DNA of 62,550 nucleotides, from positions 1 through 62,550 of the forward strand of contig JBGPQP010000007.1 of assembly GCA_041489155.1 (NCBI GenBank), in the 5' to 3' direction. Numbering within the stretch: position 1 is the first letter of the stretch; each line of letters opens with the position of its first letter. Source of the DNA: Candidatus Aenigmatarchaeota archaeon (GTDB lineage: Archaea; Aenigmatarchaeota; Aenigmatarchaeia; QMZP01; QMZT01). Made by a program: the position numbers. Below, piece by piece: positions 57,301-60,300 of this stretch.

Positions 57301-60300
57301 GATGCCCGCCAGCAATAACTTTGAGTTCATACAGTATGTCCTCCCTATTTAGTTCTGAGAATTTATCTTTAAATGCGTATACTACCATCGCAAAACCCAT
57401 GCTGCTAGCGACGTGGATCACGCTGAAAGGCAGCGCTGGCACGAAGGCGAGCTCCCACGAAATCCAGCCGAACAGCAGGAGCCATGTGAGGTCAACCATT
57501 ATTTCGTAAAACACGGTGCCTGCCAGAACCGCGGTGAAAAACGAGTATTTCGACTGCGATATTTTACCCAGCGCCGCGCCCGTCAGCGCTGCAAGGCCGG
57601 TCCCCGCGACCTGGAAAAGCGTCCACGGTCCCTGGCCGCCCCACACGACGAAATTCGATAGGTAAAATGCGCCCATGCCGGAAGGCAGGGCATATTTGTA
57701 ACCGAAGAAGAAGCCTATCGCCACCGCCAGCGGAACGATGGGCTCGACGCTGGGAAGCCACTGGAATGCGGCGCGGCCGAGGATCCCGATGGACGTGAGA
57801 ACCGAAAGCTTAAGCGCGACGGCGACGAGGTTTTTCTGCATGAGCTTCTGTAAGGTGATCGTCAGTATGCCCTGCTTTTCTTCCTGCAAGTCTTTTTGTT
57901 CGGTTTCCCCGTCAAGCCTTTCTTCAAAAAGCTGCTCTGCTTTCTGTCGCATTCAGCTGTCCCTCTTCCTTCCGGTTATCGCGTGCTGGTCCGCGTATTT
58001 GCCAGCATAGCCGCTGCTTTCGTTGTCAAGTCTCATCAGAATCAGCTGGACGAAGCGTTTGCCCGCCTTTATCTTCACAGGAGAAGCATTCGCATTGAAA
58101 ACGCTGAGAGTCAGCGTGCCCCTGAAGCCCGGGTCGACCCAGCCCGCGTTGTTGAAGACGATTCCTATGCGCGACAGCGAGCTGCGCAGCTTGGTCATCC
58201 CTCCCACGTCGTTCGGCAGCTCTACGCGCTCAAGCGTGCGCAAGAGGACGTGCGTTCTGGGAGGGAGGACGATATCACTGGCCTTTATCTTTTCGTATTC
58301 CTGCTCCTTTTCGAAGTCGATGGCCTTTCCTTTCAGTATGAGTATTTCATCGGCAAGCCTGAGGTCGATGGAAGCGGGCTGTATCTGTTTCTCTTCAATG
58401 GGATCTATAACTAGCCTGCCTGAATTCAGCAGCTCCTTTATGGTTTTCTCCGAAAGAATCATGCGAGCACAACCTTCAATACTCGAGCCCCTCTTCAGCC
58501 TTCCTGCCCTTTGAAAACGGATGTTTTACGTCCTTCATCTCGGTGACGAGATCCGCCCTTTCCAAGAGCTTCTCTCCCGCCCCGCGGCCGGTGATGACCA
58601 GGTTCGTTTCCTCCGGAAGCTCGCTTATCAGGTCGAGCAGGTCCGTATCGTCTATCATGCCCGCCGAGGCAGCGACATTCGCCTCGTCCAGAATCAGCAA
58701 ATCCGGCCTGTACGCGCCCGTCATTATTTTTTTCGCGTACATGAGCGCTTCTATGGCGCGCTGCTTATCTTCCTTTGAGGGGTTTTTCAGGTCAACGAAA
58801 TTCTCGGTACCGAACTGCACGATGTCCAGGCCGGGCAGGTTTTTCTTGAGCATGAATTCGCCAGTCTTCGTGCCCTTCAGGAACTGGATTACGACGACGC
58901 GCTTTCCATGGCCGAGGAAGCGGAGCGCCATCCCGAAAGCAGCGGACGTCTTCCCCTTCCCGTTACCAGTGTAAACGCAGACCACACCCATAACATCACC
59001 TCATGCCTATCTTCCCGAGAAACAATCTCGAGCACAGCGAGCCTTTCGAAGCGGCGTATTCGAGTTCTTCGGGCTTCGCCCATTTCCATGCCACGTATTG
59101 CGTTCCGGCGAAAGGCTGCGGCACCTCCGGCTTCCCTTTCGCTATCCTCGCCTCGTATAATTTCATATATAATATGTAATCCTGTCTTTCAAGTCTTCCC
59201 TCGTTCAGCATGCCTTTTACTTCAAGCCTGACGCCGAGCTTTTCCTTCCCGGCCCTTATCACCGCGTCTTCCCACGCCTCGCCGTCTTTCAGCGACGTCG
59301 CCGGCAGGCCCCATACGCCGGCAAGCTCGTCTTCCTCAGGCCTCTTCACGGCCAGCACCTTTTTCCTGTCCCTGTCGTAGACAACGAACGCTATCGCTTT
59401 CTCGGTGCGCTTCATTCAACCACATTTGGAATAGCCGCAGCTCAGGCACGTATAGCATCCCTCCGCCGAATAAAGTTTCGATTTGCAGACAGGGCAGTTC
59501 TCGTCGGACTCGCTGAGCTGCTTTTCATCTTCCTCTGCCTTCACGAGCTTTATCCTCTTCCTCTTCTCCTCCCCTATGTGTATCACCTGCACCGCCTTGC
59601 TCATGTCCCTGTAAATCGTCACGCCTTTGCACTTCAGCTTGTGGGCGAGGATGTAAGCGTTCTCGACGTCCTTTATGCTCGCCTCGTTGCGCATGTTTAT
59701 AGTCTTGCTTACCGCGTTGTCCGTGTATTTCTGGAACGCGGCCTGCATCCTTATGTGCCACTCGTAATCGATGTCGTGCGCCGTCTTGAACAGTTCCTTC
59801 GCCTCCCTCGGGACGCCGGCGATCTCCTCGACCGAACCTGTCTTTGAAATCTCGTGCATCAGCTCGTCGCTATAGAAATCCTTTTTCCTCGCATAGGTTT
59901 CGAAAAGCTTGTTAACCTCGACCAGTTCTTCGCCTCCGAGCACGTTCTTCCTGACGAACGCGACCGCGAACAGCGGCTCTATCCCGCTAGAGCAGTCCGA
60001 TATTATGCTTATCGTTCCCGTCGGGGCGATGGTCGTGACAGTCGCGTTTCTCATGTGCCTGTAATCCTTCTTGTCCCACATGCTGCCCTTGAAATTCGGG
60101 AAATTTCCCCTTGCCTTCCCGAGCTCCTGCGACCTCTCCCTCGCCGCCTCGTTAAGGTTCTTCATTACCTTTTCGCCGATCTTCAGCGCCTCCTCGGAGT
60201 CGTAACGGATGCAGAGTTTTATCAGCATGTCAGCGAAGCCCATGACGCCCAGGCCGATTTTCCTGTTGGCGTGCGTCATGAATTCTATCTGCTTTATGGG

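Follow-up and report, generated by a model that had tools for sequence, protein, structure and literature searches.

Results

Gene content of the locus

The stretch of DNA analysed here, called the window, comprises 62,550 nucleotides of contig JBGPQP010000007.1 from a Candidatus Aenigmatarchaeota archaeon (assembly GCA_041489155.1). The minus strand carries the following features.

55686..56852, minus strand: protein of 388 aa; His-rich N-terminus, single membrane helix, thioredoxin/DsbA-like domains (Pfam thioredoxin-like)
56920..57330, minus strand: DUF4430/SLBB partner protein, 136 aa, in which a linker joins the domain to a membrane helix at the N-terminus (Pfam, profile, model)
57206..57952, minus strand: gene for a predicted CbrT-family ECF-type S-component, 248 aa (ORF and translation, homologues, CbrT profile match, model)
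57206..57330, minus strand: same-strand overlap of the S-component gene and the DUF4430 gene, 125 nt (read from the sequence)
57953..58462, minus strand: dCTP deaminase (dcd), directly upstream, its stop abutting the S-component start (Pfam DCD, 3.7e-38)
58476..58991, minus strand: ATP:corrinoid adenosyltransferase of CobO/BtuR type (Pfam PF02572, 2.2e-55; NCBIfam cobA, 6.1e-45)
58996..59415, minus strand: NUDIX hydrolase (Pfam NUDIX, 1.2e-11)
59416..62382, minus strand: NrdJ, adenosylcobalamin-dependent ribonucleotide reductase with an intein at about 60478-61608 (NCBIfam TIGR02504)

NrdJ scores 689 bits against TIGR02504 (cut-off 400) and additionally has intein-type matches; its profile match is split into 59581-60477 and 61609-62316. 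Besides NrdJ, the genome encodes four ORFs with a B12-binding domain. The 388-aa thioredoxin/DsbA-like gene is possibly the last gene of the operon. A thioredoxin-like gene is also found downstream of the DUF4430 gene in the homologous loci L006, L007, L016-L019, L096, L099-L101 and L104.

Existence and extent of the S-component gene

A survey of the whole genome had proposed an uncalled minus-strand ORF of 217 codons ending at 57302. The ORF is borne out, and its frame is open from an ATG at 57952 which directly follows the TGA stop of dCTP deaminase (57953-57955). Its end, however, had been misplaced, as the codon at 57304-57302 reads CAT and the frame is closed by a TAA at 57208-57206. The product thus has 248 residues; 217 codons approximate the conserved core, with the profile match spanning 57290-57913. 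As the survey had it, the protein belongs to no Pfam family, and a search of NCBIfam with the 248-aa sequence gave no match either. Its description as uncalled is consistent with the absence of the exact sequence from a collection of 15 billion proteins, in which the dCTP deaminase, DUF4430 and CobO proteins of the window are present.

The DUF4430 gene is read in a different frame from its own ATG at 57330, behind GGGAGG. Overlaps of 125-158 nt between the two genes occur in six close relatives. The overlap in the window probably explains why just one of the two genes was called, and it is a likely reason why deposited protein sets are devoid of the S-component gene. A programmed frameshift fusing the two proteins was considered and rejected, since the DUF4430 frame is interrupted by a TAA seven codons ahead of the ATG, which has a GGGAGG of its own. 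Selection on the overlapping tail was likewise not supported: for a stop to arise in the S-component frame, a DUF4430 codon with T as its last letter must precede one that begins with AA, AG or GA, and by our reading of the sequence such sites are few in the hydrophobic anchor of the DUF4430 protein. Two relatives devoid of the S-component gene (G012 and G022) keep the corresponding frame open over 58-89 codons.

That the ORF is no gene at all, but open by chance or left over from a decaying gene, might be argued from its being uncalled in the deposited annotation and from the overlap of its 3' end with the next gene. Conservation at the sequence level already refutes this view and leaves it practically no chance: seven relatives have full-length homologues of 39-71% identity free of internal stops, and 1804 representative clusters match the family profile at E <= 0.001, far more than chance would give. 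In addition, the structure model is confident, and the start is closely coupled to the stop of dcd.

Predicted fold and sequence family of the product

The survey had considered its structure model unreliable (pLDDT 47). This no longer applies, as modelling with an alignment gave a pLDDT of 84.8 and a structure to which S-components align at Z 15. In this model the product has the six-helix S-component fold. A cytoplasmic N-terminal helix of about 40 residues precedes the six-helix core (about 41-193), which is followed by a C-terminal helix (195-216); the basic, low-confidence C-terminal tail is encoded within the overlap. Foldseek alone returned weak E-values (best 0.2), with S-components still heading the list, and the fold assignment was settled by a second look with VIA-align. 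There, ranks 1-23 are all occupied by ECF S-components (Z 15.0-11.0, 150-173 residues aligned). The top match is 7nnt_C (Z 15.0, rmsd 3.2, 163 residues aligned), while the nearest unrelated fold has Z 9.0. The rmsd is 3.0-3.9 for 22 of the 23 S-components and 7.5 for 5edl. The CbrT structure 6FNP is absent from these fold-match lists.

By sequence, the protein is closer to CbrT than to other S-components. When 177,635 PDB sequences were searched with the family profile, the single significant match was 6fnp_A, ECF-CbrT (E 4.8e-9, 154 positions); none of the other S-components, of which the PDB contains many, came up at E <= 10. Among 26 aligned homologues, 13 match Pfam DUF6580, 8 ECF_trnsprt and 8 ECF-ribofla_trS. 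A search of the genome for DUF6580 (PF20221) found no match, nor did it in any of 14 controls, and so carries no information; a literature search for DUF6580/PF20221 found nothing.

The survey had proposed a stand-alone, BtuM-like B12 uptake protein and had itself held the missing alignment to BtuM or CbrT against it. That objection falls for CbrT; for BtuM, searching the PDB sequences with the profile gave no match at E <= 10. BtuM of Thiobacillus denitrificans (PDB 6FFV/8C7P) is reported to transport B12 as a solitary protein of S-component type (Rempel et al. 2018, PMC6072759). It is co-localised with btuR, and toppling together with metabolic trapping by adenosylation has been proposed for it (PMC6072759). 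In common with BtuM, the archaeal protein has the predicted S-component fold (8c7p, Z 12.1, 6% identity), no ECF module and a btuR/cobO neighbour. Cys80 in loop 3 of BtuM is reported as the cobalt ligand and as required for binding and decyanation (PMC6072759), whereas the 248-aa protein has no cysteine and the family alignment no invariant or nearly invariant cysteine column. Residues that are invariant in the family are R60, E70, N100 and W110, and H180 is nearly so. Moreover, BtuM is proteobacterial, and the account of it in PMC6072759 describes no DUF4430 partner. The protein is therefore better described as a relative of CbrT. Solitary BioY proteins are another case of S-components mediating uptake, here of biotin, in the absence of an ECF module, most BioY being ECF-associated (PMC6072759); they differ from the window protein in substrate and family.

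CbrT is the cobalamin-specific S-component of ECF-CbrT from Lactobacillus delbrueckii (PDB 6FNP; Santos et al. 2018, PMC5997447). Identity between CbrT and the archaeal protein is low and discernible at the profile level only. They have in common P-x-V-x-P in loop 1 and SN...G.WT in and near loop 3, and both carry a histidine in their final helix. The archaeal family has cytoplasmic N- and C-terminal helices, which are missing from the 182-aa CbrT. Locus logic is alike: in the L. delbrueckii cluster nrdJ-cbrS-cbrT-pduO (PMC5997447), too, the S-component gene is accompanied by genes for a B12-dependent ribonucleotide reductase and an adenosyltransferase and by a small neighbour, cbrS. The adenosyltransferase is of PduO type there and of CobO/BtuR type here. 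In L. rhamnosus a DUF4430 gene adjoins rtpR (PMC9963975), and by analogy cbrS may be a DUF4430 gene. The core idea of the survey, a solitary S-component-like B12 uptake protein within a B12 salvage cluster, is thus supported by the CbrT alignment and the predicted fold, as well as by the partner protein and the riboswitches treated below. The names CbrT and cbrS reportedly go back to Rodionov et al. 2009.

The DUF4430 partner and the two-gene module

The partner protein matches Pfam DUF4430 with 65.6 bits (cut-off 23.8). In a profile search against the PDB it aligned to transcobalamin-1 (E 1e-7, residues 324-431), 3u7z (2.8e-5) and the TC2 beta domain (0.0048). Its model (pLDDT 85.7) was matched by Foldseek to 5no0 and 5np4, the isolated transcobalamin beta domain in its apo and cyanocobalamin-bound forms (E 2e-8, TMt 0.81); the rmsd to 5no0 is 2.6, and the title of 5np4 is that of the isolated beta domain bound to cyanocobalamin. 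Apart from 3u7z, every Foldseek match at E <= 0.001 is a cobalamin carrier. On this profile and model evidence, the partner is a membrane-anchored homologue of the cobalamin-binding transcobalamin beta domain, with an ectodomain of residues about 35-136, and is predicted to bind cobalamin. By profile and fold it matches the C-terminal beta domain of the animal B12 carriers transcobalamin, intrinsic factor and haptocorrin. In contrast to these carriers, it has no alpha/alpha toroid, is anchored by an N-terminal helix and consists of 136 aa only.

The genes for the S-component and the DUF4430 protein together make up a conserved module. A scan with one family-specific motif yielded 64 homologous loci from DPANN-labelled archaea, whose taxonomic limits are those of the motif; the pair is present in 62 of them. 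The DUF4430 gene lies directly downstream of the S-component gene in 49 of the 64 loci by the DUF4430 HMM and in 2 more by Pfam. In 11 further loci the place is taken by a long protein or fused part with a DUF4430-like N-terminus (hhalign 97.5%, E 7e-12), and a single locus, L046, encodes a 684-aa fusion. The module is hence spread across DPANN-labelled archaea and not restricted to one family, as had been supposed.

Transcobalamin-like SLBB (DUF4430) surface proteins of bacteria, in operons with CbiO/CbiQ-type transporters, were predicted by Burroughs, Balaji, Iyer and Aravind in 2007 (PMC1796856). These proteins have the same domain and the same predicted role, surface scavenging of B12 in organisms unable to make it (PMC1796856). 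Their operons encode the ATPase and the T component of an ECF transporter, frequently along with an alpha/alpha toroid (PMC1796856), whereas the window module consists of an S-component and a minimal tethered SLBB protein. An experimental test of this B12 scavenging was not found in the literature searched. Bacteroides BtuH was considered as a further DUF4430 protein and rejected, its B12-binding domain being reported as having no known structural homologues (PMC8941943). A plasmid collection searched with the DUF4430 protein yielded two records, one from Burkholderia (E 0.006, 33% coverage) and one from Bacillus. The Bacillus record holds an operon of the type predicted in 2007, in which two DUF4430 proteins, EcfT, EcfAA' and an S-component of the CbrT-like family (hhalign 98.8%, E 5.8e-17) are encoded together.

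Adenosylcobalamin riboswitches

Riboswitch control is the pattern expected of uptake genes. AdoCbl-II riboswitches above the Rfam gathering score lie upstream and on the gene's strand in 7 of the 64 homologous loci; in 5 of these 7 the distance from the riboswitch to the S-component gene is between about 40 and a few hundred nt. At the window's own locus (55000-62550) no riboswitch was found at E <= 1, the contig leaving just 168 nt upstream of nrdJ, and none was found in the Bacillus operon. The S-component gene is tied genomically to B12-dependent enzymes and to B12 regulation, through the operon with NrdJ and CobO and through the riboswitches of these seven loci. The substrate had been deduced from gene order only; riboswitches and a transcobalamin beta-domain partner now supplement that argument.

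Distribution and loss among relatives

The survey had reported the gene in four relatives, with a mean identity of 75%, and always between dcd and the DUF4430 gene. Conservation is wider than this count, with full-length frames in 7 of 40 relatives, and identity amounts to 58-71% for six of them and 39% for the seventh, G016. The order cobO-dcd-ORF-DUF4430 is kept in six of the seven; G016 has ORF-DUF4430 in another context. None of the 18 genomes from other families of the order contains a full-length frame. NrdJ is present in all eight genomes that carry the S-component gene among the 41 compared (the 40 relatives and the genome itself).

Six relatives, G004 (same genus), G005, G009, G012, G014 and G022, have a cobO-dcd-DUF4430 cluster that is intact but for the S-component gene, which they lack. 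A match to S-component residues of about 192-207 persists in the spacer of G012 and in that of G022 and looks like a deletion scar. G010, G015 and G019 have a DUF4430 match after cobO and no S-component. Since the gene is absent from these B12-using relatives, such lineages can evidently dispense with it.

ECF motor, B12 synthesis and other importers

In agreement with the survey, neither an EcfT/EcfA/EcfA' module, the usual companion of S-components in the same genome, nor B12 synthesis was detected in the genome, which is 89.65% complete: the best EcfT match has E 0.34, and CobS and CbiB gave none. An importer of FecCD/BtuC type was not found either. With NrdJ and four further ORFs for B12-binding domains to be served, these absences speak for a requirement to take B12 up. 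None of the ABC ATPases of the genome is ECF-type by best match; the three single-domain ones match MacB/LolD or DrrA, one adjoining an FtsX/MacB permease and another an ABC-2 permease.

EcfT (PF02361) was found in 2 of 18 genomes carrying the S-component gene. These two, G008 and G021, are among the seven other S-carrying relatives and have EcfT in a separate S-EcfA-EcfT cluster. No EcfT was found in the 10 further S-carrying genomes reached via the loci, one recorded as complete and the others having no stated completeness, nor in five genomes of the same genus, two of them in 7 and 4 contigs. No match to the EcfT HMM lies within 5 kb of any of the 64 loci. The absence of these genes suggests that transport would take place independently of an ECF module.

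Discussion

A proposed capture-and-import pair for vitamin B12

Taken together, the data argue, with a chance that we rate slightly better than even, for an ECF-independent pair for the capture and import of B12 (corrinoid), in which a CbrT-family S-component and a DUF4430 protein are predicted to feed CobO and NrdJ. The DUF4430 protein, tethered by one helix at the outer face of the membrane, would bind cobalamin via its transcobalamin-beta-like domain. The vitamin would then be handed to the S-component, whose conserved outward-facing loops may form the binding site; candidates are L1 (LPSVEPI), L3 (SNF..GGQGPWT) and the L5/TM6 region (PF...H). The S-component would carry B12 across, probably by toppling in the membrane. 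As there is no EcfT/EcfA motor, such transport would be facilitated diffusion. Finally, the adjacent CobO may turn B12 into AdoCbl, which would trap the vitamin and supply NrdJ from the same operon. Against this reading stand the loss of the S-component gene from the intact clusters of six relatives, the failure of bacterial CbrT to act alone (see below) and the ECF modules of the two carriers G008 and G021, which could possibly be shared.

Alternative explanations

The closest characterised relative needs a motor, since solitary CbrT of L. delbrueckii, produced in the absence of its ECF module, did not support B12-dependent growth of E. coli, and CbrT is described as working only with the EcfAA'T module (PMC5997447); most carriers of the archaeal gene, by contrast, have no detectable EcfT. 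The archaeal S-component might accordingly be specific for B12 and still not self-sufficient, relying on an energising partner that escaped recognition. This partner could be a T component that has diverged very far, some other ABC system or a module from the tenth of the genome that is not assembled; in G008 and G021 it could be the ECF module encoded elsewhere. Several facts fit this explanation besides the failed complementation by CbrT. The distant family members P0028, P0110, P0141, P0144, P0152 and P0175 are fused to two ABC ATPase domains, the Bacillus member shares its operon with EcfT and EcfAA', two relatives have an ECF module, and the genome is incomplete (89.65%). Nonetheless we consider it unlikely, though the most serious of the alternatives. 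EcfT is found in just 2 of 18 carriers and in none of the five genomes of the genus, one carrier devoid of EcfT is recorded as a complete genome, and no EcfT match lies near any of the 64 loci. The single-domain ABC ATPases of the genome are themselves of MacB/LolD or DrrA type, two standing beside FtsX/MacB or ABC-2 permeases.

The S-component might also bind B12 without translocating it, serving as a dock or receptor for the tethered DUF4430 protein, as a reservoir or as a sensor, while import takes a different path, for a DPANN cell possibly through contact with its host. We judge this improbable. Repeated loss of the S-component while DUF4430, CobO and NrdJ persist would be in line with it, as would the lack of an evident energy source and the unusual conserved cytoplasmic helices at both ends, which CbrT does not have. 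On the other hand, the position of the riboswitches fits the pattern of uptake genes and the genome yielded no BtuC-type importer. Furthermore, the S-component-fold proteins characterised in the accounts of PMC5997447 and PMC6072759 are all translocating subunits or transporters.

There is, in addition, a small chance that the substrate is something other than complete cobalamin, be it a different corrinoid, a precursor or a metabolite unrelated to it. ECF-CbrT is reported to carry cobinamide as well (PMC5997447), and the cluster also contains dcd and a NUDIX gene. Burroughs et al. (2007, PMC1796856) doubted a B12 role of SLBB proteins in archaea and suggested that these might scavenge 'a distinct metabolite'. 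Their argument rested on B12-making archaea and is therefore inapplicable here. Cobinamide could not be completed in this genome, as CobS and CbiB are missing. Cobamides are indicated alike by the AdoCbl riboswitches, by the partner with its transcobalamin beta domain and by the presence of CobO and NrdJ.

Implications

The genomes of DPANN archaea are very small, and these organisms rely on other cells. No description of B12 acquisition by DPANN archaea was found in a search of the literature on DPANN, cobalamin and ECF transporters, and the window offers a candidate for it consisting of two small genes. If the capture-and-import pair works alone, a CbrT-type subunit can shed its ATP motor, widespread DUF4430/SLBB proteins do scavenge B12 as predicted in 2007, and dependence on B12 ties episymbionts to B12 producers. 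A more far-reaching version seems possible to us, though short of an even chance: the pair might be a complete motor-free two-protein B12 importer, widely used by DPANN archaea, in which the partner and/or the cytoplasmic helices replace the ECF module and adenosylation by CobO provides the drive. It would then constitute a third mechanistic class of prokaryotic B12 uptake beside BtuCDF and ECF-CbrT and would give a prokaryotic transcobalamin-domain protein its first assigned function. Same-strand overlaps are a likely blind spot of gene calling, which may conceal the S-component gene in other genomes, too.

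An unannotated gene overlapping the DUF4430 gene

Between the dCTP deaminase gene (dcd) and the gene of a DUF4430 protein, the survey's finding had placed an uncalled ORF of 217 codons ending at 57302. The codon at this position is CAT and no stop, and the frame closes only further downstream:

57206..57952, minus strand: S-component ORF, ATG 57952 to TAA 57208-57206, 248 residues

The 217 codons correspond roughly to the conserved part, as the family profile matches 57290-57913 and the confidence of the structural model falls from residue ~210 onward, but they fall short of the true frame. 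The TGA of dcd immediately precedes ATG 57952, with a purine-rich stretch just upstream of this start. The DUF4430 gene begins in a different frame at ATG 57330, preceded by GGGAGG, and shares the final 125 nt of the S-component ORF on the same strand. The overlap is also found in six close relatives (125-158 nt). A full-length frame without stops is present in 7 of 40 relatives, six at 58-71% identity and one (G016) at 39%, and in none of 18 genomes from the order's other families. On these sequence grounds the ORF is a real gene. In keeping with its being uncalled, the exact 248-residue protein is missing from a collection of approximately 15 billion predicted proteins which contains its dcd, DUF4430 and CobO neighbours. 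Common gene callers limit same-strand overlaps and would keep only one of two genes overlapping by 125 nt, which probably explains the omission. Among 5.8 billion proteins, a word-indexed search picked up 25 homologues. When 1.84 billion representatives were searched with the family profile, 1804 clusters reached E <= 0.001; at <= 1e-10 there were 936, and at <= 1e-30 there were 57.

An S-component fold related to CbrT

As noted in the survey, no Pfam model matches the protein; the same holds for NCBIfam. Among the 26 aligned family sequences (A1), Pfam recognises DUF6580 in 13, ECF_trnsprt in 8 and ECF-ribofla_trS in 8; a search found no literature on DUF6580/PF20221. Compared with all PDB sequences, the A1 profile has a sole significant match, 6FNP chain A (E 4.8e-9), whose residues 5-162 align with profile positions 30-183. 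Both share P-x-V-x-P in loop 1 and SN...G.WT around loop 3, and the last helix of each contains a histidine. Invariant in A1 are R60, P67, E70, P71, G84, G92, S99, N100, G105, G108, P109, W110, P175 and F176, and H180 is nearly so; the usual S-component topology presumably places these residues in loops 1, 3 and 5, which face outward. The 6FNP entry holds ECF-CbrT from Lactobacillus delbrueckii, an ECF-type transporter for vitamin B12 in which loops 1 and 3 of CbrT gate the binding cavity (PMC5997447). Chain A (182 residues, labelled 'Membrane protein') is most probably CbrT itself.

Folded with A1, the protein gave a model of pLDDT 84.8 and pTM 0.72, superseding an earlier unreliable one (pLDDT 47). 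Foldseek ranked S-components at the top with weak E-values. When its candidates were realigned with VIA-align, ranks 1-23 were all ECF S-components, including ThiT, RibU, PanT, BioY, CbiM and BtuM (8c7p, Z 12.1); the best was FolT 7nnt_C (Z 15.0, rmsd 3.2, 163 aligned) and the next row an unrelated fold (Z 9.0). The modelled structure thus shows an ECF S-component fold. Additional to it are a cytoplasmic N-terminal helix of ~40 residues with a conserved L.xQK..Q and a C-terminal helix, both absent from CbrT.

The partner resembles the transcobalamin beta domain

The DUF4430 partner (136 aa) begins with a single membrane helix, which a linker joins to the DUF4430 domain; this domain also forms the C-terminal part of transcobalamins (PMC4350170). 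A profile of 24 partner proteins matched transcobalamin-1 (haptocorrin) residues 324-431 in the PDB (E 1e-7), followed by Ruminococcus 3u7z (2.8e-5), the isolated transcobalamin-2 beta domain (0.0048) and intrinsic factor (0.12). The partner model (pLDDT 85.7) matched the isolated human transcobalamin beta domain, apo and cyanocobalamin-bound (E 2e-8, TMt 0.81, rmsd 2.6), and all its matches at E <= 0.001 were cobalamin carriers or 3u7z. The own genome encodes a second DUF4430-domain protein outside the window (324 aa, domain residues 206-261; G000:C8:27816-27986; L087 886-1860), and ORFs of ~270-360 aa resembling it occur in many relatives.

Conserved pairing in DPANN archaea

A family-motif scan of one genome per species gave 64 loci; because a single motif was used, their taxonomic limits are those of the motif. 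All group-labelled loci bear the label of a DPANN group (Aenigmat-, Nanohalo-, Woese-, Pace-, Micr-, Parv-, Undin- and Nanoarchaeota), the remaining labels being 'uncultured Methanosarcinales' (12/64) and 'archaeon' alone (10/64). By HMM, a DUF4430 gene lies directly downstream of the S-component gene, often overlapping it, in 49 of the 64 loci, and Pfam adds two (L050, L061). Eleven further loci carry there a secreted, C-terminally anchored protein of 440-510 aa, or a fused part, with a DUF4430-like N-terminus (hhalign 97.5%, E 7e-12, 118 columns). The downstream gene of L056 was judged alike by eye, L039 has no gene downstream on that strand, and in L046 both partners form a single 684-aa fusion protein. 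G016 retains the pair in a different neighbourhood. The S-component and DUF4430 pair is the conserved unit. Among distant members of the family, six proteins carry a fusion with two ABC ATPase domains and three a fusion with an alpha/alpha toroid. Fused forms in the wider family are P0027, P0151, P0168; P0028, P0110, P0141, P0144, P0152, P0175; and P0156.

Link to cobalamin

In the own operon the gene order is nrdJ (interrupted by an intein), NUDIX, cobO, dcd, S-component, DUF4430, and the gaps measure 0-13 nt. Elsewhere, L016-L021 have nrdJ and cobO ahead of the pair, and L023 has nrdJ there without cobO. Rfam scans revealed AdoCbl-II riboswitches (RF01689) above the gathering score in 7 of the 64 loci, full length, with the conserved core kept and always on the same strand as the S-component gene:

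L046 4741-4823, S-component strand: AdoCbl-II aptamer
L049 370-447, S-component strand: AdoCbl-II aptamer
L063 109-189, S-component strand: AdoCbl-II aptamer
L068 4670-4750, S-component strand: AdoCbl-II aptamer
L069 4246-4324, S-component strand: AdoCbl-II aptamer
L055 203-282, S-component strand: AdoCbl-II aptamer
L059 828-906, S-component strand: AdoCbl-II aptamer

These homologues are thus under riboswitch control. In the first five loci the riboswitch stands just ahead of the S-component gene, ending 43-121 nt before the ORF starts as called here in L046, L049, L063 and L068, and ~400 nt before the ORF in L069, where the start is uncertain. In L055 and L059 it leads a longer operon. A protein of 1135/1282 aa comes first, followed in L055 only by a CobO-domain protein, and then in both by the S-component, DUF4430 and a long protein resembling DUF4430. 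The first of these ORFs (L055 330-3737; L059 954-4802) has no Pfam family. The riboswitch contigs are labelled Nanoarchaeia, Nanoarchaeota, Woesearchaeota or 'uncultured Methanosarcinales', an assignment which may need checking. To our knowledge riboswitches have rarely been reported in archaea, and seven cobalamin riboswitches in DPANN-type contigs therefore merit attention of their own.

NrdJ, the adenosylcobalamin-dependent ribonucleotide reductase, occurs in all 8 S-carrying genomes as compared to 27 of the 41 searched. The own genome (89.65% complete) encodes NrdJ and four more ORFs with a B12-binding domain; neither CobS nor CbiB was matched in it, which agrees with the lack of B12 synthesis noted before, nor was FecCD/BtuC.

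Search for an ECF motor

EcfT (PF02361) was not found in the own genome (best E 0.34, in a citrate-transporter-like ORF), bearing out the survey on the missing ECF module. Its ABC ATPases are two of MacB/LolD type, one with an FtsX/MacB permease gene just behind it, and one of DrrA type adjoining an ABC-2 permease gene; there is also a 599-aa ORF with two ATPase domains. No further S-component was detected in this genome. EcfT is absent from all five genomes of the genus, two of them in 7 and 4 contigs, and from ten further S-carrying genomes reached via the loci, among them Nanohaloarchaea SG9, whose record is titled complete genome; most of the genomes behind this absence are incomplete. Among the seven other S-carrying relatives, only G008 and G021 have EcfT; there it belongs to a distinct cluster that brings an S-component of its own (185 aa) and an ATPase.

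A proposed uptake route

Most likely, the tethered beta-domain protein would capture cobalamin at the cell surface. The S-component would take it over and might move it inward, motor-free, by the toppling proposed for this fold. Adenosylation by CobO could then trap the imported cobalamin and supply it to NrdJ. Toppling and adenosylation have been proposed earlier for BtuM and BtuR (PMC6072759). Against this route, CbrT alone gave no growth of an E. coli test strain (PMC5997447). Moreover, in six relatives the cobO-dcd-DUF4430(-Trx) cluster is otherwise conserved but contains no S-component gene: L096 (G004), L099 (G009), L100 (G014), L101 (G005), L103 (G012) and L104 (G022). In G012 and G022 a short spacer before DUF4430 still matches S-component residues ~192-207; this 3' remnant indicates that the gene was deleted while DUF4430, CobO and NrdJ were retained. 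Loss is patchy within genera, the gene being present in 3 of 5 genomes of the own genus and 2 of 4 of genus g9. G010, G015 and G019 likewise lack it and have a DUF4430 match right after cobO. Either such lineages have a different means of importing B12, or import does not depend solely or essentially on the S-component.

Comparison with known systems

The survey had called the protein BtuM-like. It would work as BtuM does, being solitary and next to a btuR-type gene (cobO), but it lacks both the cysteine ligand and any sequence match to BtuM and stands outside that family. By sequence it is a relative of CbrT, apparently without the dependence on an ECF module that defines CbrT.

Transcobalamin-like SLBB proteins were predicted to scavenge B12, and bacteria unable to make B12 encode them with CbiO/CbiQ-type transporters; for archaeal SLBB proteins the same authors doubted this role (Burroughs et al. 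2007, PMC1796856). The general idea of combining SLBB proteins with ECF-type transporters for B12 scavenging was thus published as early as 2007, and both ECF-CbrT and BtuM have been characterised. We found no published description, for DPANN archaea, of a CbrT-family form that lacks the motor and goes with a minimal tethered beta domain, and a search on DPANN, cobalamin and ECF gave nothing related by title and abstract. The L. delbrueckii cluster is nrdJ-cbrS-cbrT-pduO (PMC5997447), and in L. rhamnosus a DUF4430 gene adjoins rtpR (PMC9963975); by analogy, cbrS may be a DUF4430 gene.

The DUF4430 protein also matched a record from Bacillus sp. N5-665, NZ_CP093325.1, a sequence of 5.5 Mb that is filed under the name of a 'plasmid'. 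Its locus L105 6914-12768 holds an unannotated operon for a 588-aa DUF4430 and alpha/alpha-toroid protein, of transcobalamin-like architecture with reversed domain order, a 277-aa DUF4430 lipoprotein, EcfT, a fused double ATPase (EcfAA') and a 240-aa S-component. The latter matches A1 (hhalign, 98.8% probability, E 5.8e-17); LPSVQP, SN..GQGPWT and the histidine of the last helix are common to both. A B12 riboswitch was not detected in this operon.

Other genes near the cluster

60478-61608, minus strand: insertion of ~377 codons in NrdJ, with intein-type matches
55686-56852, minus strand: 388-aa protein, N-terminus strikingly rich in His, with a single membrane helix and a pair of thioredoxin/DsbA-like regions
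55100-55384, plus strand: 94-aa two-helix membrane ORF, motif SPW.AAFMNF..WGSGY.YI

NrdJ frames of the relatives range from 713 to 1700 codons, and their intein content therefore differs. The 388-aa protein, which might conceivably handle cobalt or the redox state of cobalamin, is conserved as the next gene behind DUF4430 in many relatives, S-less ones included. The 94-aa ORF recurs near relatives' clusters (L096 351-623, L101 5532-5804, L104 27-299).
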